Below are positions 1 to 39,519 of a DNA stretch of 53,096 nucleotides, piece by piece. The notes beneath the pieces were generated by a model. That model was given only the letters and a program-made list of their open reading frames with translations. It ran no database searches and was not told the DNA's origin. Source of the stretch: a virus (Duplodnaviria > Caudoviricetes); the IMG/VR virus record IMGVR_UViG_3300006428_000052, positions 1 to 53,096 of that record, one strand, 5' to 3'. Position 1 is the first letter of the stretch; every line of letters begins with the position of its first letter. A program made the translations under genes and the position numbers.

Positions 1-2997
1 TTATTGCACACAATTCTCAACAAACTTATCGTAATCATCAGCTTTGACAAATTTGGCTCCCTGCCCCAGCGCTGCAAAGTGCTTTTCGCCGCAGCGAATC
101 TTCGCACTCTCGGTGGGTCGCAGAGCATCAGCCAGAATATTGCCTTTTGTCTCTACTACGAAATAGAGCCTATTCTGCCCGTTGTCCTCGATGACCACCG
201 CCCAGTCCGGGTTGTAACTGCCCAGCGGGGTGGCGATCTTAAACCAATCCGGTAGTTTGGCGTAGACCTTGACACTCTCGTTGCCCTCAAATCGTTCGGC
301 AAAGCTGCGCTCCACCTCGCTGTCGTAGACCACATAGTTATATACGCTGCGCTGGCTCTCAATCATATTCCGATTCAGGTAGCCGGTCAGCTCCTCGGAA
401 TCAAACAGTTCCTGGGCATAGAACTCGCTGTCTCCCAGCTTCGTATACTTAATGCCGTCCACGATCAGCAGGCGCATTACCGAGGCAATCGTTTTGGCGG
501 CATCCTCCATGTACGCCTGAGGGTTTTTCTTGAACAGCGGCAGCGTTTTGCTGCGGGTGAGAATCTCCACAATGGTACGGCGGGTGAGGTTGGTGCGGTT
601 TTGCAGATAGGTCACGATGTCCGGCAGGTTCTCTTTGACATCTGCCGCCAGCACCGAAAGCCGCTGCGTCTCGGCTGCGGCTACGCCGCCCTCAGTCACA
701 CTGACCTTCGCCTTGGAATACACCAGCTTGGCCGCTCCCACATTCAGGTTCATCTGCAGATTGTCGCAGCATTTTTGGATCAGTTCTTCAGAATCAAAGT
801 CCACCCGGTAGGTGGTTTTATACTTGATCTTCTCCCACAGGGCCTTAAAATCCTCGCCTAAAAACAGCTCCTTGTTCAGCGCTACCACACGCTTGTCCGC
901 CGCCGGCTTGATATTCAGGTTGCCGCTGGCCTTCTTGCAGACCGCCGCAATGGCGTCGCGCTGCTCGGCGACTGCTTCCGGCACGGTAAGCGTGTTGCTT
1001 TTCAGCGCTGTCTTCAGCGCATCCGTTACCTGATCCTTGCCGTCGATATAGCCGCAAGCCTTGAAGGCATGATAGATAAGCTCCGATTTTTCCGCACCGA
1101 GGTAGGCCGCACTGCCATCGGCCTGCTTGACCGGGATATTGGCAAAGCTGTGGCTTTCCAGCACGCCGAAACGAATACCCTCGTCGGTTTCATACTCGCT
1201 TTGCAGCTTCTTGGCAAAAACATCGTAACTCTCGTTTGCCATAACCGTCAGCGTGTTGATGGAAAAGCCGTGCTGACGTTCACCGTTCTGATTGACGCAC
1301 AGGCGCAGACCGCGCCCAATCTCCTGCCGCTTTTTCACATCGCTCTTGGTTTCGTTCAGCGTGCAGATCTGGAACACATTGGGGTTGTCCCAGCCCTCAC
1401 GCAGGGCGGAGTGAGAAAAGATAAAGCGCAGGGGACACTCAAAAGAAAGCAGCCATTCCTTATTCCGCATAATCGTATTAAATGCCGTTTCGTCGTCAGC
1501 ATTTGCGCGGATATTTCCGGTTTTATCTTCTTTGCTGTCCTTAAATTGTTTTGTGTTTTTATCTATAGAAAAGTATCCGTCATGTACCTTTTCCACCGGG
1601 GTATCCACGTCCACATCCTCAAACAAGGTGCGGTATTTGGGGCGGGCGATCAGTTCCTTATAGCTACGCTCAAATATTTCAGCATAAGGACCCTTACAGG
1701 CATTGCCGTTCTCGTCGTAATAGCGGTAGTTTGCCACCCGGTCGATAAAAAACAGGCTCAGCACCTTGATGCCGCGATGGTTCAGCGCCAGTTCTTTGTT
1801 CAGATGCTCCTCAATAGTTTTGCGGATCTGCTGCTCTTTAATGGCAAGGTCGTCAATGTCGCCCACGGCCTCGCCGATGCGCAGAATCGTGGGCTTGGTA
1901 GAAAAGCTGACATATTCGTTGCTCTGTTCGCAGTAGATTTCATCCACAAGGTAGTTATCATAGACCTCGCGGCCGCCGGTGAGCTGCTGCAAATCGTCCC
2001 CGGCGCGCACAGTCACGCTCTTGCGTTTGACCGCACCTTTCACTTCACAGTCCAGCTCAATTTTCGCCGTAATGGGCGATTTTTTGTTGTCCACGCTCAG
2101 CAGCTTCATGTAGGCGTTGTTGTGATAGTCCACGCTCTCAAAACTGGCCACCTCGATCTGCTTCACCAGCTCCATGTCAAAGGCGTCCACCGCGTCCAAC
2201 TTATAGACCAGATTGTGTTTTACAACATGGGTGGCGGAAAAGCGCAGAGTACATAGGGCGTTCAGCGACGCCATGGCCTTTTTGGATGCCACCGCACCCT
2301 TGCCCTCCACCGACTGCGGCTCGTCCACAATGACAAAGGGGCGTGTTTCCTGAATCAGCTCGATGGGACGCATACCGTTGAGCTTGTCGTTCTGGCGGTG
2401 GATGATATTGGCTTTGTTTTCCTTGTCCGGGTCGTCAAAGCTTTTGCGGAAAGCGTCAATGTTAATGACCATAATGGAAATATGATCGCTGACGGCAAAA
2501 GAGCGCACCTGCTCCAGCTTATTGCTGTCGTAAATAAAGTAGTCGTACACCGTGTTGTCGTAGAGGTTGCCGAAATGCTCCTGCGTGATTTGCAGGTTTT
2601 TATAGACGCCCTCTTTGATGGCGATGCTGGGCACCACGATAACAAACTTGGAAAAGCCGTAGGCCTTGTTCAGCTCAAAAATCGTACGCAGATACACATA
2701 GGTCTTGCCGGTGCCGGTCTCCATCTCCACGTCGAAATCATATGTATTCTTTTTCAGAACCTTGGTCTGGGGCAGACCGTTGCGCAGTTGTACCGCCTGC
2801 AAATTGGCAAGAAGCTCGTCCTCGGTCAGCTCCAGCTTGTTGCCGATGCCGTGGTTCGTGTCCTCCATGCCGACCTGCCCGGCGTAGGCGGATACGGTGA
2901 AGTTGGACTGCTTAGGCGTCTGGCCGCGAAAGAGGTCAACCACGGAAGAAATCGCCTGCTCCTGATATTGGAGGTTTGCGTCAAATTGTAGTTTCAT
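1..2997 (-). CDS. res: Type III restriction enzyme Res subunit
   Basis: 998 aa; MKLQF N-terminus, Walker A METGTGKT, DEPQ, ALREGWDNPNVFQIC, C-terminal nuclease YNPDW..VETKG; downstream of mod. Confidence 0.95.
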   Translation of the reverse strand: MKLQFDANLQYQEQAISSVVDLFRGQTPKQSNFTVSAYAGQVGMEDTNHGIGNKLELTEDELLANLQAVQLRNGLPQTKVLKKNTYDFDVEMETGTGKTYVYLRTIFELNKAYGFSKFVIVVPSIAIKEGVYKNLQITQEHFGNLYDNTVYDYFIYDSNKLEQVRSFAVSDHISIMVINIDAFRKSFDDPDKENKANIIHRQNDKLNGMRPIELIQETRPFVIVDEPQSVEGKGAVASKKAMASLNALCTLRFSATHVVKHNLVYKLDAVDAFDMELVKQIEVASFESVDYHNNAYMKLLSVDNKKSPITAKIELDCEVKGAVKRKSVTVRAGDDLQQLTGGREVYDNYLVDEIYCEQSNEYVSFSTKPTILRIGEAVGDIDDLAIKEQQIRKTIEEHLNKELALNHRGIKVLSLFFIDRVANYRYYDENGNACKGPYAEIFERSYKELIARPKYRTLFEDVDVDTPVEKVHDGYFSIDKNTKQFKDSKEDKTGNIRANADDETAFNTIMRNKEWLLSFECPLRFIFSHSALREGWDNPNVFQICTLNETKSDVKKRQEIGRGLRLCVNQNGERQHGFSINTLTVMANESYDVFAKKLQSEYETDEGIRFGVLESHSFANIPVKQADGSAAYLGAEKSELIYHAFKACGYIDGKDQVTDALKTALKSNTLTVPEAVAEQRDAIAAVCKKASGNLNIKPAADKRVVALNKELFLGEDFKALWEKIKYKTTYRVDFDSEELIQKCCDNLQMNLNVGAAKLVYSKAKVSVTEGGVAAAETQRLSVLAADVKENLPDIVTYLQNRTNLTRRTIVEILTRSKTLPLFKKNPQAYMEDAAKTIASVMRLLIVDGIKYTKLGDSEFYAQELFDSEELTGYLNRNMIESQRSVYNYVVYDSEVERSFAERFEGNESVKVYAKLPDWFKIATPLGSYNPDWAVVIEDNGQNRLYFVVETKGNILADALRPTESAKIRCGEKHFAALGQGAKFVKADDYDKFVENCVQ

Positions 2998-29843: not shown

Positions 29844-30419
29844 TTACACGCCTCCCACATCCGCACGCCTGGTGATTTCATATTCGTTTTTATACTTGTC
29901 CAGCGTGTGAGCGATCTGGACCGGATAATTCACAGTGCCGCAGCGTACGCTGGAGCCCACATCCAGCGTAATCACCTTGGGAACGACCAGCACCAGCGTG
30001 GTGGTGGTCACCGCCATCGGCTCCTGCTGGTCATGGCCCAGATATTTCTCGGTCAGAATGCCCGGGAAGCGATGTCCGGGCGTCTCCGCATTCACGTCCG
30101 CCTGGCAGGTGATCGGGTCGCACAGTGCCGCCTGCACGGTACTGCGCAGCCCATCTCCGACCGGTACGATGGAGGTAACAAAACAAAATTGGTTCTTCCA
30201 CCAGAGCGCTGAAAGCAGCGTCAACTTGGGATTGGCCCACATCGTAAACGTCACGCCTCGGGCTCCGATGCCCACGGAAGAAAACAGGTTGCTCTTGGTA
30301 TCCATCTCCGCCGTTGCCCAGGCCGTGTACAGCGTATCCCAGATGTAGATGTCCTCGGTCTCGTCATAGACCAGCTGCATCACCTGCACGCGCTGATTCA
30401 TCGCGCCCACGCTTGCCAT
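29844..30419 (-). CDS. Head-tail adaptor (head closure)
   Basis: GAMNQRVQV, TAWA; position after connector. Confidence 0.7.
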   Translation of the reverse strand: MASVGAMNQRVQVMQLVYDETEDIYIWDTLYTAWATAEMDTKSNLFSSVGIGARGVTFTMWANPKLTLLSALWWKNQFCFVTSIVPVGDGLRSTVQAALCDPITCQADVNAETPGHRFPGILTEKYLGHDQQEPMAVTTTTLVLVVPKVITLDVGSSVRCGTVNYPVQIAHTLDKYKNEYEITRRADVGGV

Positions 30420-34489: not shown

Positions 34490-34708
34490 TCACTTTCCGC
34501 GCTTGGCCCTTGCCACCGTCACAGCATAGGCCGCGAAGCAGATACCAGCCACAGCCAAAGCCGCCGCATAACCATATCGAATTGCAGCTGATGCAATAAA
34601 GCAGATGCCTGCCGATACAAATAGCAAGTCCTCAAAATAAAGGCCCAGCAGCTCAACCACTTTTTCTTGGCTTGCCCGCCGCCTCTGTCGTTTTTCCTCC
34701 TTGGTCAT
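34490..34708 (-). CDS. Small membrane protein between terminase and portal
   Basis: 72 aa, two hydrophobic segments. Confidence 0.7.
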   Translation of the reverse strand: MTKEEKRQRRRASQEKVVELLGLYFEDLLFVSAGICFIASAAIRYGYAAALAVAGICFAAYAVTVARAKRGK

Positions 34709-36498
34709 AGGCCCCAGTCCTCTCCTAAGTGTTCTGTGTCAAATGTTGCTTTGTTCCGCATAATCATCCACACCGCCACGACAATGATCATGCCGACAGA
34801 CGGGTCAATTCGTCCGGTAGACTTATTTTTCAGCGGTTTTTCGTTTCCGTTACCATCCACATAGCAGCGTACATTGCCAAAACACCACCGGGCACAGGTA
34901 TTGTGGACGTGCAGCATCTCATGCTTGATCATTCCGGTCTCGATCTCCTTCATGGCAGGGCTCATATTCTTAAGGTCCTGCGGAATCTCGATGACATCCA
35001 CAATCGGCGTAAGCCGCTGCGTAATCGTCCGGGACAGATAGGGGTCAAAGCCCACTGCTTTGAGGTTATAATCCCGCTTTGCCTGCGCAATGGTCGCTTC
35101 CACGTCACCGTAGTCGATTACATCGCCCTCACATAGCTTTATGAATCCCGCACGATCCCAGTCCCGATACGGAACATGGTCCCGTTTTTCCGCCGCTTCC
35201 ACGTTTCCACGCGGACGCCAGATATGGAAAAGGAAAATACCATGATCTAGCCCGTTCTGAACCGGAAAAAACAGCACAAATGCCGTCAGGTCCCGGGAGG
35301 AGGAAAGGTCCACACCGCCGTAACAGAGCTTCCCTTTCAGCTGTTCCAGCCACTTCTCCCGCTCCGCCTTGGCGGACGGACCCCACTGGGTCTTGTCCCA
35401 CAGCGTCAGCGGCAGCCATCCCACCGCTTTGACGGAGATCCACTGATTCAGACGCAGCCAACGAAACAGCTTTTCGTCTGCTTCACTCTTTTTGGCGGCC
35501 ATGGCCTCCATCCGCAGCGTGCGGATCTTCAAGTGCTTTCCCAAGGATGGATTGCACATGTACCATAGCCGCTCATCCCAGATATCAACCTTGGCCAAGT
35601 CCTCCGGATCATCGCCAAATATTGCCGTCAGGCCGTAGAGCACTGGCAGCCAGTTCGGGAAATCCCGGCTTAGCAGATCCGCTTCCGCAGCCGGAAGGTC
35701 CTCTTTCTCCACATGGCGGAGAGACAGCACGGTGCATGGATCGCCGTCCTCATCCAGCACCTTGCGGAGCTTTCGGGCGTCCCGGATGGCCACGGCCTTT
35801 TCGTGGATTTCCCAGCCAATGGAGCCCCGGTCCGGGTCGTCGCCGGCGGTCGTCAGCACGATATATACCGGCTGCTTCCGACCGGAGCCGGAGCCGAAGG
35901 TCATAACGTCCCACAGGTCCCGATTCGGCTGCGCGTGCAATTCATCGAAGATCACACAGCTGGGCTTATAACCATGCTTCGAAAAAGCCTCGCTGGACAG
36001 CACCTTCATGATGCCGACGATCACCCATTTAAAGCCGCCGTTACCGGTGCGGATGCGCTGTCGGTACTCAATCCGCTTCTGGGATTCCACAATTTTCAGT
36101 TCCCCGCGGGCGATCATCTTAGCCGTCCAGGGAGCCGATGTCAGCATAAACAGCGCCGCATTAAATACGATGCCAGCGTTTTCTTTATCCGCTGCGCAAA
36201 TGTAAACCTCCGCGTTCAGCTCGCCATCCGCAAACAGATGATAAATGCCCAGAGACGCCGCCAGTTCACTTTTGCCGTTTTTCTTTGGAATCTCCAGATA
36301 GAGATACCAGTATTTCCGCAGCCGTTCGCCGGTCTCCTCGTCCTGGTCCATCGTGGAGTAAAACTCCATGATGGGATCTCGTTCCCAGTCGTACAGCTTA
36401 AACGGCTTTCCGGTGTCCGTGGTCGGCAGCCGCTCGATGAAATCACAAACGAACAGCCCGGCCCCCTCGTCAAAATACTCGTGGTTTTTCTCCGGCAT
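34705..36498 (-). CDS. terL: Terminase large subunit
   Basis: IPKKNGKSEL, IFDELH, LTTAG, GVDLSS, RIDP. Confidence 0.95.
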   Translation of the reverse strand: MPEKNHEYFDEGAGLFVCDFIERLPTTDTGKPFKLYDWERDPIMEFYSTMDQDEETGERLRKYWYLYLEIPKKNGKSELAASLGIYHLFADGELNAEVYICAADKENAGIVFNAALFMLTSAPWTAKMIARGELKIVESQKRIEYRQRIRTGNGGFKWVIVGIMKVLSSEAFSKHGYKPSCVIFDELHAQPNRDLWDVMTFGSGSGRKQPVYIVLTTAGDDPDRGSIGWEIHEKAVAIRDARKLRKVLDEDGDPCTVLSLRHVEKEDLPAAEADLLSRDFPNWLPVLYGLTAIFGDDPEDLAKVDIWDERLWYMCNPSLGKHLKIRTLRMEAMAAKKSEADEKLFRWLRLNQWISVKAVGWLPLTLWDKTQWGPSAKAEREKWLEQLKGKLCYGGVDLSSSRDLTAFVLFFPVQNGLDHGIFLFHIWRPRGNVEAAEKRDHVPYRDWDRAGFIKLCEGDVIDYGDVEATIAQAKRDYNLKAVGFDPYLSRTITQRLTPIVDVIEIPQDLKNMSPAMKEIETGMIKHEMLHVHNTCARWCFGNVRCYVDGNGNEKPLKNKSTGRIDPSVGMIIVVAVWMIMRNKATFDTEHLGEDWGL

Positions 36499-36504
36499 GG
36501 GCCA

Positions 36505-37023
36505 TCACTCCGTGGATGCCATGGCGCTGGCCTGCCGCGCATGGAGCCGCTTTGAAAACTCGTCGTCTCCTTCTGCCGCGGGAGCAGCGGCTGGAGTGAG
36601 CACCTTCGGGAGCACCAGCCGGCAGCGGGATGTGATCGACAGGCCCATTGCCTCCGCGCACTGGCGGCACTGTTTGAAATAGGATGCCTGGATGCTGCTC
36701 CAATCCTTGGCCTTCACCTCGTCCTTGGCCCGGATCGCGGTCGCCGCCTGCTTATCAGCCCGCACCCAGCGTTCCCGCGTGACCAGGTACTGCGCAAGGA
36801 TATCTTTGTCCAGGTCCGTATAGAGCTCTACACGCAGCAGCATCTCGCCCAGCTCCTCAAATTCGGCGTGAAATTTCTTTGCCAGCCACTTGGGAGGGAT
36901 CGCCTTCTCCGGCGGCTCGACCTTCACTTCTGCATCCAGCCGGGCATCAATCTCCGCCTGGGGCATGTGCTTTTTTCCGTTTGCTATCACCACGCTGGTG
37001 GGCTGTCGTTTTCCTGCCATCAC
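36505..37023 (-). CDS. terS: Terminase small subunit (P27 family)
   Basis: PPKWL, D..ILAQY, MGLSITSRCRL. Confidence 0.9.
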   Translation of the reverse strand: MMAGKRQPTSVVIANGKKHMPQAEIDARLDAEVKVEPPEKAIPPKWLAKKFHAEFEELGEMLLRVELYTDLDKDILAQYLVTRERWVRADKQAATAIRAKDEVKAKDWSSIQASYFKQCRQCAEAMGLSITSRCRLVLPKVLTPAAAPAAEGDDEFSKRLHARQASAMASTE

Positions 37024-37147
37024 TCAGCACCTCCTCCGGCAGAAATAAAGGGCCGTCACAGGCCGGACACCTCCAGCCATCCATGCACTGGCTTCGCGTC
37101 TGAATAGAATATCCGCAGTCGCGGCAGCGCCATGTTGTTAAAGCCAT
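36947..37147 (-). CDS. Small Zn-ribbon ORF
   Basis: AAAGGA RBS; MALTTWRCRDCG..RCPACD; overlaps the terS start. Confidence 0.45.
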   Translation of the reverse strand: MALTTWRCRDCGYSIQTRSQCMDGWRCPACDGPLFLPEEVLSDGRKTTAHQRGDSKRKKAHAPGGD

Positions 37148-37162
37148 TTCGTTGTCCTTTCC

Positions 37163-37260
37163 TTCCGGCGCATCACCCGGCCCTCGCGGTTGGTTCGCGG
37201 GGGCCAGGCAGGAGAGAAGGAATGAAAGCCGGCCGGCAAAGGCCGGGTAACACGCCGGAA
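37163..37260 (-). ncRNA. Candidate structured RNA unit 2 with anti-SD/anti-ATG loop
   Basis: 24-bp closing stem with 5 G-U pairs; inner stem GGCCGGC/GCCTGGCC; loop UUUCAUUCCUUCUCUCCU. Confidence 0.7.
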
Positions 37261-37266
37261 TGCTGT

Positions 37267-37360
37267 TCGGGCACAGCACCCAGCCTTCGCGTATACGCTC
37301 CGGCCGGGCAGGAGGGAATGTCATGGCAACGCCAGCCCGAAAGCTGGGTGCCGCGCCCGA
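37267..37360 (-). ncRNA. Candidate structured RNA unit 1 with anti-SD/anti-ATG loop
   Basis: 23-bp closing stem with 3 G-U pairs; inner stem GGCTGGC/GCCCGGCC; loop GUUGCCAUGACAUUCCCUCCU. Confidence 0.7.
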
Positions 37361-37437
37361 TATTTTCGGTTGCCCTGGCGACGATCCCGGATCTTTACCG
37401 TCCTGCCGCCCTGGTTCCCGCTAAATTTTTGGTTCAG

Positions 37438-37454
37438 GTGTCCGATTCGGACAC
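37438..37454. repeat. Dispersed 17-bp palindrome, copy 3
   Basis: GTGTCCGATTCGGACAC. Confidence 0.95.
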
Positions 37455-37479
37455 CGCCGGCAGCCTGGGGCCGCCGAAA

Positions 37480-37565
37480 TTTCGCCGTGGGGAAATTTTT
37501 TCGTATGTGCCCTCGCTTGCGGTATTCCGCGGCCCGGTCAAAACTTTCTTGACCGGGGGGAGGGT
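37480..37565 (-). other. Probable cos/packaging region
   Basis: Non-coding gap between HNH and terS, the usual cos location in HNH/P27/HK97-type phages; cut site not determined. Confidence 0.45.
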
Positions 37566-37624
37566 TGCGAGGAATCGCACTCACATGCGCTCGATGCGCC
37601 CATGCGCCCAAGCGTCCAGCCTCG

Positions 37625-38005
37625 TCAGCGCCGCCGCCCGTTGAAATCCTGCTGTTTTTCTGCAAGGATTTCACGCAAAGTCTTTCGGCTGTGGCATGAA
37701 TGGCACAGGCTCTGGTGATTCTCTGGGTTAACGAACAGCGCCCAGTCGCCTTTGAACGGCTGCTTATGGTCCACTTCCGTGGCTCTAGTTCGGATTCCAC
37801 GCTTTGCGCACTCTTGGCAGAAGGGCTCTCTCAGGAGTTGCGCTGGACGCAGATCGTCCTTCCAGATCGGCAGATTGTACCAGTTATGCCAGGATGCACT
37901 CTCGGACCCTCGCTCACGCTTTGGACGATGAGCCAGACACCAACCATCCCCGGTCAACTCCCCGCACCCTGGATGCTTACACGGCCGCAGCGGCTTCATC
38001 GGCAT
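37625..38005 (-). CDS. Terminase-associated HNH endonuclease
   Basis: MPMKPLRPC, EPFCQEC, EVDH, NHQSLCHSCHSRKT; GGAGG RBS. Confidence 0.92.
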   Translation of the reverse strand: MPMKPLRPCKHPGCGELTGDGWCLAHRPKRERGSESASWHNWYNLPIWKDDLRPAQLLREPFCQECAKRGIRTRATEVDHKQPFKGDWALFVNPENHQSLCHSCHSRKTLREILAEKQQDFNGRRR

Positions 38006-38021
38006 CAGATCACCTCCAGGC

Positions 38022-38093
38022 AAAACAAAAAGAGCCCAAACCGACATCCCCGCATTCGCGGTTCAGTGGCTCAGGCTCAAAGGCTCAGGCTCA
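38022..38093 (-). terminator. Late-leader terminator preceded by four TGAGCC repeats
   Basis: GAGCC..TGAACCG / CGGTTTG GGCTC TTTTTGTTTT. Confidence 0.65.
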
Positions 38094-38257
38094 GCGATAT
38101 TCAAAAGGCCGTTCCAGCCGCACAGTTTGCAGTGGACTGGAAGGTTTCGGGCTGTAGTTGCTGCTGTAATCGGGATCAATTTCTTTTTCCCGCAGGCTGG
38201 GCATGTAATCCATCCAGCTCTTGCAATGATTGTAACACTTTCGGGAACTTTTTGCAA
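38063..38257 (-). CDS. Cys-rich KTR-like Zn-ribbon protein
   Basis: GWITCPACG..TTARNLPVHCKLC. Confidence 0.75.
   Translation of the reverse strand: MQKVPESVTIIARAGWITCPACGKKKLIPITAATTARNLPVHCKLCGWNGLLNIAEPEPLSLSH
38229..38257 (-). promoter_or_regulatory. Candidate late promoter inside the Zn-ribbon gene
   Basis: TTGCAA-17bp-TACAAT. Confidence 0.55.
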
Positions 38258-38330
38258 TGAATTTCACCGCCTTTTTGACTTTATTTCAGAAGATATACAT
38301 GGTTCCAAGATTGAAAAAGACAAAGCCGTT

Positions 38331-39098
38331 TTAAATTCGATCCGTCTTCCTGAACGGGCGCTGTCGATGGTATTCGCTCGGCCAATCCTGCGGCTGATCA
38401 GGGAGCAGATACTTTAAATAACTGAACTCTCCGAAGGTGTTCTGCACGCTTTCACGGAGAATGACGACTGCTCCGGGCGGAACTGTCAGCGTAAAGTTGT
38501 CCGGAACCCAGCCTTTATCCGGCTTCGGATGCTTGAGTCCTTTTGATGGTGTCCAGGTCCGCTCCCCGAGTACCCACTTGCCTCCGTCCCGCGGTTCTTT
38601 TGTAAGATACTGCGCAAGTTTGGTATATCCAACAGCGCCCACAGAATTAAATCGGACGTTACCGTATGGCCACAGACGCCGAATCGCAGCAAGATCATCG
38701 TTCGTACCATTGACAACGATATGATGATGGATGCGTTTGTCTCCGTGATTTCCCTCCGTTACATATATGTAAATAAGGGCTTCACCCGTTGCACTTTTCC
38801 GCTCCTCCCGTAAAGTGCGAATAAACCTTTTGAGAATCTTAACTGCATCAGCCCTGGTTTCTGGAAGAAACTCATCCTTATATGTCAGAGTAACATGCAT
38901 ATCCACATAGCTGAAATTCGCCGCCAGAACCTGCTCTAACTTTTGCCATGACAATCTGAGATTCATGACTTCCCGGGCCTGTGATGAAATATTTGTCTTT
39001 GCAGATCGCTCCTGCTCTGTGTCTCTATCCTTGCTGACCGTATATACAACTCCGGTAACCAACCGGCCGGCTGTCCGGATATTTTTACGCTTTGCCAA
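38331..39098 (-). CDS. HUH-superfamily Rep-like protein
   Basis: HVTLTY, HHHIVV, YLTKE; TTG start after AGGAGG. Confidence 0.75.
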   Translation of the reverse strand: MAKRKNIRTAGRLVTGVVYTVSKDRDTEQERSAKTNISSQAREVMNLRLSWQKLEQVLAANFSYVDMHVTLTYKDEFLPETRADAVKILKRFIRTLREERKSATGEALIYIYVTEGNHGDKRIHHHIVVNGTNDDLAAIRRLWPYGNVRFNSVGAVGYTKLAQYLTKEPRDGGKWVLGERTWTPSKGLKHPKPDKGWVPDNFTLTVPPGAVVILRESVQNTFGEFSYLKYLLPDQPQDWPSEYHRQRPFRKTDRI

Positions 39099-39157
39099 AA
39101 TACTCCTCCTAAACGACGTAAAGCGGAGCCGCAGCTCCGCCAACGTCTTTTTAATTT

Positions 39158-39388
39158 TCAGTCTTCTTTCCATTCCGAGAGCGATTTATATGCGGCAATC
39201 ATCCCCGCAAGGTCACCCTCCATCATTGCCTTTTGAACTGCGTAAATATCCTGCTGCATCAACGCCGCCGCAAACTGTCCATTGGGCACGCTCCGGTATA
39301 GGGCAATAATACCTTGCACACGGGCAATCTCTTTAGGTAAAGCCTCTCCTAAAGTTTGGGTTTCTCCGTGCTTCAATTCATCACTCAT
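39158..39388 (-). CDS. Hypothetical phage protein
   Basis: 76 aa; RBS and overlap with upstream ORF. Confidence 0.75.
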   Translation of the reverse strand: MSDELKHGETQTLGEALPKEIARVQGIIALYRSVPNGQFAAALMQQDIYAVQKAMMEGDLAGMIAAYKSLSEWKED

Positions 39389-39519
39389 TTGTGGGCCTCC
39401 TTCATTGCTTTTTCAAGCCATTTGCACTGTTTGCATCTTACAGCAGTTGTGCCCTTGCGTGTCGGTTTACCGAGGCACACGTTGCGAACATAAGGCTTAT
39501 AGCATTTCGGCTTACTCAT
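39385..39519 (-). CDS. 44-aa Cys-containing protein (absent from ORF track)
   Basis: MSKPKCYKPYVRNVCLGK..CKQCKWLEKAMKEAHK*; GGAGG RBS; overlaps both neighbours. Confidence 0.55.
   Translation of the reverse strand: MSKPKCYKPYVRNVCLGKPTRKGTTAVRCKQCKWLEKAMKEAHK

Follow-up and report, generated by a model that had tools for sequence, protein, structure and literature searches.

A covarying hairpin RNA module in the packaging-operon leader of a few related phages

The window analyzed here is the whole of the IMG/VR provirus record IMGVR_UViG_3300006428_000052 (Duplodnaviria; Caudoviricetes; 53,096 bp), the TerL of which resembles Bacillota and phage terminases. All genes around the locus of interest lie on the minus strand, in the order Rep-like gene, Cys-rich KTR open reading frame (ORF), HNH endonuclease gene, cos-like block, short palindrome, two tandem hairpin units, zinc-ribbon ORF, terS and terL, after which come the genes for the portal, a protease, the major head protein and the tail sheath. 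The two units, A (distal) and B (proximal), are the subject of this report. What they display is an RNA structure that is under selection and specific to one strand (in formal terms, a structure of single-stranded nucleic acid). It constitutes an accessory and portable module of the packaging-operon leader, and the units belong to a real RNA family, not described before, which is present in a few related phages.

Each unit folds on the minus strand into a long closing stem (P1), an inner stem (P2) that carries a loop and a side hairpin (P3), and the two are separated by 6 nt (37261-37266). In unit A the 5' arm of P1 (37338-37360) pairs with the 3' arm (37267-37289) over 23 bp with three G-U pairs; the corresponding arms of unit B (37237-37260 and 37163-37186) pair over 24 bp with five. 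All eight non-Watson-Crick pairs are G-U on the minus strand and hence C-A mismatches on the plus strand. P2 has the form GGCYGGC/GCC-Y-GGCC with a bulged pyrimidine, and is made up of 37331-37337 and 37302-37309 in unit A (bulged C) and of 37228-37234 and 37202-37209 in unit B (bulged U). The side hairpin of unit A (37289-37301) is weak, while P3 of unit B (37181-37203) has a 3' strand that is able to extend P1 instead. The loop of unit A (37310-37330) reads AGGAGGGAATGTCATGGCAAC on the plus strand and ends in a pyrimidine tract on the minus strand; that of unit B (37210-37227) reads AGGAGAGAAGGAATGAAA on the plus strand, with 17 of the 18 nucleotides being pyrimidines in the RNA, and the AGGAG motifs of the two plus-strand readings are exactly 100 bp apart. 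The original prediction, which was derived from the letters of the window, had described two tandem units 6 nt apart with closing stems of 23-24 bp, eight G-U pairs, a shared inner stem, side hairpins, a 100-bp offset and loops reading as a Shine-Dalgarno (SD) sequence, a spacer and an ATG; every one of these details is present in the sequence. It had also placed the structure on the late-transcript strand, and folding agrees: the minus strand of 37150-37375 has a minimum free energy (MFE) of -120 kcal/mol with z = -5.39 and none of 200 shuffles folds as well, whereas the plus strand has z = -2.03 and is equaled by five of 200 shuffles. Likewise, a covariance model built from six units scores unit A at 76.1 bits on the minus strand versus 35.2 on the plus strand, and unit B at 88 versus 30.2 bits.

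Homologous units were found in five other IMG/VR phage records (L002, L019, L023, L042 and L069), which together with the window amounts to nine units in six records. L019, L023 (/L027) and L042 have one unit each and the window, L002 and L069 two each, so that the number of units varies among phages as had been anticipated. Of these records, L019, L023, L042 and L069 were recovered by pattern scans developed from the arm sequences and by the zinc-ribbon alignment. Thirteen phage loci share the terS of the window, but only the closest of them, L002 (TerS identity 77%), which also has the zinc-ribbon ORF, carries units; the other twelve (62-66% identity) pass from HNH and cos to terS via leaders without units. 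Seven unit-less leaders were folded, five of 50-80 nt and those of L012 and L013 of 178 and 219 nt, and no comparable long helix was seen in them. As close relatives lack the units, they are accessory. Conversely, L069 has two units in front of a very different Terminase_4-like terS, and L042 has one unit together with a second, different long hairpin. The unit-less L012-L014 instead carry a purine-rich stretch, possibly coding for a small peptide of very basic character, about 180-220 nt before terS.

The six-unit model recognizes all nine units, with scores of 45-93 bits for the late strand as against 26-44 bits for the opposite one, and has no further matches in the window, the fetched loci or the unit-bearing whole records G001 and G002, nor any match in the unit-less whole records G003 and G004. 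Among the 30 loci obtained from pattern scans, four are known records and 25 of the 26 new ones have no model match above 20 bits. A search of genome and metagenome contigs with the zinc-ribbon alignment returned mostly unrelated zinc ribbons, and inspection revealed no unit in L015, L016, L018, L024, L025 and L029-L032; L033 and L034, from pattern scans of viral contigs, were dropped by inspection, such scans having given chance matches in coding regions. Further relatives occur in contigs of four sludge and biofilm DNA runs: one contig has unit B fused directly to the terS leader with 29 nt in place of the zinc-ribbon ORF, another has unit A alone before terS, and short contigs depart from unit B within its loop and have pyrimidine-rich loops of their own. 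The family is thus narrowly distributed, its known members coming from the six IMG/VR records and these sludge and biofilm contigs.

The original prediction had not recognized the units as a named family, and database searches bear this out. Blastn in distant mode with 37100-37660 against GenBank phages gave no match, Rfam 15 gave only chance matches (E > 3) in 36000-39000 of the window, and the best Rfam 15 match in L019, L042, L023 and L002 was mir-3130 at 29.3 bits versus a gathering score of 95, so that nothing in Rfam 15 comes at or near its gathering score. No tRNA or tmRNA is present in the window, and a search of a limited collection of papers produced no account of such an element.

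Comparison of the units supports the pairing of P1. When six units are aligned with MAFFT, 125 of 126 P1 cells can pair on the late strand versus 105 of 126 on the opposite strand, and all 20 wobble cells, which fall in eight columns, are G-U on the late strand with none being G-U on the other. When the nine units are aligned by fitting to the covariance model, P1 is free of gaps and is paired in 188 of 189 cells (99.5%; 21 aligned pairs), with 8 of the 21 columns changed on both sides; the resulting covariation score is reached by none of 500 shuffles, and slid controls are paired in 42-48% of cells. The anticipated conservation and covariation of the scaffold are therefore supported. P3, treated as an 8-bp helix, has changed on both sides in four of its eight pairs and is paired in 82% of cells, and most of the unpaired cells belong to the two distal copies from which P3 has been lost. 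In most units P2 reads GGCCGG/CC-N-GGCC with a bulge; in L023 a G-C pair of P2 has become A-U, and in the proximal unit of L002 an unrelated hairpin stands in its place. The pair counts recorded for P2 (65-71% paired) are too low because MAFFT aligns it poorly. Among the variants listed for the sludge and biofilm run contigs, 37249 A>G converts a G-U pair to G-C, 37242 G>A converts G-C to G-U, 37352 C>T and 37354 C>T each convert G-U to A-U, 37200 G>A mends the sole A-C mismatch in P3 of unit B, and 37202 G>A gives a G-U pair.

The same comparison points to alternative helices. Two partners are available to the 3' strand of P3, which reads CGAGGG in most units but CGGAGG in L042 and unit 1 of L069: the 5' strand of P3 and the top of the 5' arm of P1. 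Pairing with the latter lengthens P1 from 16 to 22 bp. Read from the alignment, the A of the 3' strand has shifted by one place in L042 and both of its alternative partners have changed to match. A second alternative, consisting of the outer 10 bp of P1 and two hairpins, is the MFE structure of L019, L023 and the distal unit of L002; it is compatible with a triple change in L023, and most of its pairs are invariant. The predicted folds suggest that the units are likely to be bistable. In every one of the predicted alternatives the pyrimidine tract is unpaired.

This tract is the constant part of the loops. All nine units, and likewise two further variants in run contigs, keep 9-14 nt of pure pyrimidine that include CCUCC, CCUUC or CUCCC, and in six units folded singly the tract is entirely or mostly unpaired, within a loop or the junction. 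As the order of these motifs differs among the units, their retention reflects a constraint on composition and not simple descent. The original prediction that loop sequences vary among units was correct, but its view of each loop as the complement of an entire translation-initiation region (TIR) does not extend to the family: a CAU ("anti-AUG") 5' of the tract is present in only four of ten elements (units A and B of the window, unit 2 of L069 and the second hairpin of L042, hereafter element 2) and is absent from L019, L023, the L042 unit, unit 1 of L069 and both units of L002. Nor is the idea of an exchangeable, specific guide supported, for what is conserved is the tract, a generic anti-SD. 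Among 57 TIRs of the window the best duplex partner of both loops is that of ORF 29844-30419 (-23.0 kcal/mol with loop A, -18.5 with loop B), and this is matched or beaten by 41 of 200 shuffled versions of loop A and 93 of 200 of loop B. Since the best duplexes are no better than those of shuffles, a specific target among these TIRs finds no support, and the loops are, as regards the phage itself, generic anti-SD sequences rather than specific guides. The mean affinity for the same TIRs is raised, its level being reached by 3 of 200 shuffles for loop A and 18 of 200 for loop B. The loops of the L002 proximal unit and of L042 element 2 read GAUCCUCCU, which we take to resemble the region around the anti-SD of 16S rRNA. 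Between the two units of L002 (~2205-2250, plus strand) there is a short extra hairpin with AGAAGG in its loop, complementary to CCUUCU of the distal-unit loop; it may make a 6-bp loop-loop contact with that unit, and the complementarity may also be due to chance.

In all six records the units are situated between cos and the first ORF that follows it. This ORF encodes the zinc ribbon in the window, L002, L019 and L023, a ParB-N/methylase protein in L042, and TerS in L069 and in the contigs of runs X1 and X6. Because the downstream gene varies, the units are tied to the leader and not to one protein, and an obligatory link to the zinc-ribbon protein was rejected. The distance between a unit end and the SD of the following gene is 0-15 nt in five of the six records, and the arrangement of the window, in which a unit directly abuts a purine-rich SD region, is repeated in L002, L019, L023 and L069. 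The conserved palindrome follows the units in L042 and L069 but precedes them in the window, L002, L019 and L023. A simple consensus scan of the late strand over 36400-39400, which would pass over phage-specific promoters, detected no sigma-70-type promoter before the units and no same-strand terminator behind them; the sole terminator-like match on this strand lies inside unit B, and an intrinsic terminator was dismissed for want of a U-run after the units. The nearness of a unit end to an SD, taken together with these scans, fits a leader element at least as well as a small RNA gene.

L042 provides two further observations on leader context. Its element 2 (813-906, plus strand) has an 18-bp perfect stem and no model match, occupies the SD-proximal place, the same position as unit 2 of L069, and contains in its interior a perfect 9-nt complement of the SD that lies 3 nt past the stem. 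At 640-698 (plus strand) a strong hairpin followed by a U-rich run, resembling an intrinsic terminator, ends where the L042 unit starts, which implies read-through or antitermination into the packaging operon.

Coding explanations were examined and set aside. Translations show that in several phages an open frame runs through a unit into the next ORF, but L019, L002 and L042 use a different frame from the window and L023, for which reason sense-strand coding was rejected. Plus-strand coding that starts at the loop ATGs was rejected since these ATGs are absent in most relatives and the antisense frame differs between the window and L019; a 170-aa plus-strand ORF has no Pfam family.

The features of the locus are collected in Table 1. 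The 3' end of the zinc-ribbon ORF, which has a CxxC...CxxC pattern, overlaps the start of terS by about 75 nt, and its homologues follow the units in L002, L019 and L023 with 40-71% identity. The family phrog_16900 that it matches is of unknown function, and there is no Pfam family for it at E <=0.01, looser cut-offs yielding sub-threshold matches only. A small zinc protein whose ORF overlaps the next gene is reminiscent of com-mom of phage Mu. The KTR ORF weakly matches phrog_6417 (E 2e-4), which is annotated as a translational regulator; a KTR-like ORF also precedes HNH in L019 and, judged by eye, persists as a C-terminal remnant in L008. A Rep homologue is found upstream of the KTR ORF and HNH in all five related records checked. 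The prophage of the window is myovirus-like and also carries DnaB-like and DnaD-like replication genes. A perfect palindrome of the GTGTCC-N5-GGACAC type stands just upstream of the first packaging gene in the window, L002-L007, L019 and L023, with remnants in L042 and L069, and it is conceivable either as an RNA hairpin or as a protein site. L019 has an extra 212-aa ORF (1805-2443, plus strand) after the zinc-ribbon ORF and before terS, with matches to phrog_16945 (endonuclease; E 4e-7) and to phrog_20533, a family of unknown function (E 8e-9). This ORF would be another accessory insertion in the cos-terS interval, which seems to be a hot spot for them.

Table 1. Features of the window at and around the two units
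Feature	Coordinates	Strand	Basis and remarks
Rep-like gene	38331-39173	-	PF23343 REP_ORF2-G2P; phrog_3584; 1 kb upstream of units
Cys-rich KTR ORF, 64 aa	38063-38257	-	PF14205 E 9e-7; just upstream of HNH
HNH endonuclease, upstream gene on the same strand as the units	37625-38047	-	Pfam HNH E 1.1e-7; phrog_144 E 2e-32
Cos-like conserved block, HNH to leader	37470-37624	-	Blocks common to L002-L014, L019, L023, L042; putative cos, from conservation
Short palindrome/hairpin GGTGTCC-N5-GGACACC, upstream of units	37437-37455	-	Sequence; kept in all relatives with or without units
Unit A, distal copy	37267-37360	-	Fold, covariance model, pair counts
Unit B, proximal copy	37163-37260	-	Fold, covariance model, contig variants
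Purine-rich Shine-Dalgarno region of next ORF	37148-37162	-	Sequence; begins right at unit B 3' foot
Zinc-ribbon ORF, 66 aa, first gene after units	36947-37147	-	ORF list; phrog_16900 E 1.2e-5
terS (small terminase, Terminase_4)	36505-37023	-	Pfam E 1.6e-11; phrog_83 E 5e-28
terL	34705-36498	-	Gene annotation of window

Both the position of the units and the nature of their conserved parts lead us to favor, tentatively, the interpretation that they are cis-acting post-transcriptional modules in the untranslated leader of the late packaging mRNA, which tune the first packaging gene or genes. Such a module consists of a mismatch-free P1 of 21-24 bp topped by a small three-way junction, in which P2 exposes the anti-SD-like tract and P3 stands at the side. 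The length of P1 has remained constant at 21-24 bp despite sequence change. A helix of about two turns is the typical size of substrates of RNase III-type enzymes, and the 23 and 24 bp of the window units exceed the approximately 20 bp of continuous double-stranded RNA expected of an RNase III site. We infer that the units are transcribed and that P1 could serve as an entry site for such a double-strand-specific RNase. Cleavage would separate the mRNA of the packaging genes from the upstream HNH or read-through transcript, and it would also take away the anti-SD tract, which could otherwise mask the neighboring SD. The strong SD of the next gene would then be left within a few to about 25 nt of the new 5' end, where a bound ribosome might protect the message, and in this manner the module would govern how strongly, or when, the first gene or genes of the packaging operon are expressed. 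In phage SP82 ribosome-binding-site mutations shorten mRNA half-life, as stated in an excerpt of PMC7509114 that cites Hue et al. 1995.

Several points weigh against this interpretation. RNase III of B. subtilis is described as narrow in its specificity (PMC4838370), and helix length alone is therefore no proof of cleavage. In the three-way-junction fold the whole length of a 22-bp helix separates the pyrimidine loop from the SD, which makes direct masking in cis sterically unlikely unless an alternative fold forms, and the complementarity between loop and SD is generic (5-8 bp) with no clear covariation between them. The L042 unit lies about 130 nt from the SD, and those in the contigs of runs X1 and X6 about 20-25 nt, so that exact spacing cannot be necessary. 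The absence of units from twelve terS relatives means that the module is dispensable for expression of the packaging genes. Lastly, among the run-contig variants listed, 37268 C>T and 37272 C>T would each give a C-A mismatch on the RNA strand.

The original prediction had proposed a trans-acting anti-SD RNA: the units would be excised, for example by RNase III in P1, and the stable capped junction would block initiation on mRNAs of the host, of defense systems or of competing elements. We consider this unlikely, notwithstanding several features that suit it. The pyrimidine tract is kept in nine of nine units though its sequence differs, and it is unpaired in both predicted alternative folds; variable copy number, location in a leader and an accessory nature are all compatible with a portable function; and the mean duplex energy of loop A with the TIRs of the window is better than that of shuffled loops. 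There is also a precedent in RsaE, RNAIII and other Rsa RNAs, whose unpaired UCCC or C-rich motifs bind the SD and block initiation, according to an excerpt of PMC2790875. However, the simple consensus scan shows neither a promoter nor a terminator belonging to the units, the best phage target does not surpass shuffled loops, the scarcity of the anti-AUG leaves little specificity beyond a generic SD, and a generic anti-SD would also strike the late genes of the phage itself. A more elaborate form of this proposal, which we hold to be rather improbable, has the units as an array for "anti-SD display". Here RNase III-type cleavage would release capped junction RNAs whose tract mimics the anti-SD tail of 16S rRNA and acts in trans late in infection, either by masking the ribosome-binding sites of host, defense or rival mRNAs or as a decoy for a host factor or abortive-infection nuclease that recognizes the 16S 3' tail, with the mutually exclusive covarying helices perhaps acting as a switch for the amount released.

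The patchy occurrence of the units among close relatives, with twelve terS relatives devoid of them, raises the question of whether they are functionless, selfish or neutral palindromic insertions of the MITE or REP kind that were spread by recombination and tolerated because they fold upon themselves in the mRNA. Their tandem copies, the decay of distal copies that lack P3, their differing placement relative to the conserved palindrome and their presence before two quite different terS genes could all be accommodated in this way. Yet in the window, the loci, G001 and G002 the model detects units nowhere but in the cos-terS interval, with no dispersed copies, and it detects none at all in G003 and G004; nor are target-site duplications visible in the sequence at the ends of the units. 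Furthermore, the compensatory changes in P1 and P3 and the constraint on loop composition indicate continuing selection, all of which makes a functionless insertion a doubtful proposition.

It is also possible, if quite improbable in our estimation, that the units are binding modules or decoys for a protein, with P1 and its near-invariant tandem wobbles, together with the tract, being recognized by a factor that binds double-stranded RNA, pyrimidines or the 16S 3' tail. Conservation does reside in the stems and not in the junction: an 18-nt core of the 3' arm is identical in unit B of the window, L019, L023, L042 and unit 1 of L069, a G-U pair occupies column 8/90 in eight of nine units and a U-G pair column 7/91 in six of nine. 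The two loops with GAUCCUCCU would agree with a factor of the last kind, their likeness to the 16S anti-SD being our presumption. However, such stem conservation may simply reflect recent shared ancestry. The neighboring zinc-ribbon ORF is missing from L042, L069 and the contigs of runs X1 and X6, and the Cys-rich KTR ORF upstream of HNH is present in L019, which has a unit, and as a remnant in L008, which has none.

Terminase-binding sites of phage lambda lie between cos and terS, just as the units do. An element acting as DNA, be it a single-stranded hairpin (an origin of the Rep rolling-circle type or a lagging-strand priming site) or a double-stranded TerS-binding array next to cos, would conform to this placement, to the Rep-like gene 1 kb upstream and, for the hairpin, to the wobble asymmetry, which in one DNA strand would appear as G-T; nevertheless it is very unlikely, given that four of the five records with a Rep homologue have no units, that an asymmetry of 20 G-U to 0 A-C is unexpected for a duplex protein site, that the units are dispensable in relatives, and that the TerS site of HK97, a characterized phage of the HNH/cos type, is a 15-bp A-tract-containing sequence 15-29 bp from the cut and not a 22-bp inverted repeat (PMC11331095, excerpt).

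Structured RNAs in the packaging-operon leaders of phages are hardly charted, and the present family has unusually clean comparative support in the form of near-perfect pairing with compensatory changes, a full strand bias of its wobbles, variable copy number and two mutually exclusive covarying helices. Should the units control the processing or translation of the first packaging genes, as we tentatively favor, they would give the control of late genes in HNH/cos phages of the Bacillota type an additional, post-transcriptional layer. Should they instead be excised to act in trans, they would represent a phage-borne anti-SD effector or decoy, with a bearing on phage-host conflict and use as a compact, portable part for translation control. 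Under either reading the family is now open to covariance-model searches and to tests with simple reporters.

Among known systems, the tandem structured RNA repeats of type III toxin-antitoxin loci, which are variable in number and stand directly upstream of a protein gene in phage contexts, are superficially similar to the units. However, ToxI-like repeats are about 36 nt long whereas the units are about 95 nt, and the gene directly downstream of the units, where an endoribonuclease toxin would be expected, varies; as it is the zinc-ribbon ORF, terS or a ParB-N/MTase (methyltransferase) gene, none of which matches a toxin or defense family, this identification was rejected. PADLOC found no defense match besides an MTase. 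The attC sites of integrons have R''/R' core sites of the form RYYYAAC ... GTTRRRY, with extrahelical bases and a cassette array, and on inspection, which did not include a search for an integron integrase, they too were rejected as the P1 ends of the units are CCGGCG/CGCCGG, fully paired and without extrahelical bases. A rolling-circle origin (dso/sso) of the Rep protein was discarded for lack of co-occurrence, and a riboswitch aptamer because the pattern is the opposite, with sequence conserved in the stems of the units and only composition kept in the loops. REP/BIME and MITE-like elements share several features with the units: they too are imperfect palindromes, about 90-100 nt long, in which the arms are conserved and the wobbles specific to one strand, and they occur in tandem and are polymorphic for presence or absence. 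The units differ in being limited to a single cos-terS locus per genome, without target duplications and without dispersed copies in the window, the fetched loci, G001 or G002.

The closest parallels lie in three kinds of RNA element. Like the RNase III processing hairpins of polycistronic phage mRNAs, to which the R sites of T7 belong, the units are long, self-contained hairpins of about two turns, located between the genes of an operon, repeated, and just upstream of ribosome-binding sites. RNase III processing sites of SP82 are cited in PMC4838370. In contrast, the units have a mismatch-free helix capping a three-way junction whose pyrimidine loop is conserved; they are also accessory and occur in tandem, and their cleavage is only proposed. 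SD-sequestering leader hairpins, such as translational operators, RNA thermometers and expression platforms, resemble the units in having an anti-SD in the leader of the regulated gene, and L042 element 2 contains a perfect 9-nt complement of the SD that follows it; in the units, however, it is a loop that holds the anti-SD, at a distance from the SD in the main fold, both predicted folds leave it unpaired, and no anti-anti-SD logic is evident. The RNAs of Bacillota with C-rich or UCCC loops, such as RsaE and RNAIII (PMC2790875, excerpt), share with the units an unpaired C/U-rich motif complementary to the SD on a stable scaffold, but are independent genes with their own promoters and terminators and defined targets, unlike the units, which are embedded in an mRNA leader and, by the simple consensus scan, show no such flanking signals. 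The candidate mechanisms are therefore all of known kinds, namely the processing hairpin, the anti-SD leader and the C-rich-loop RNA.

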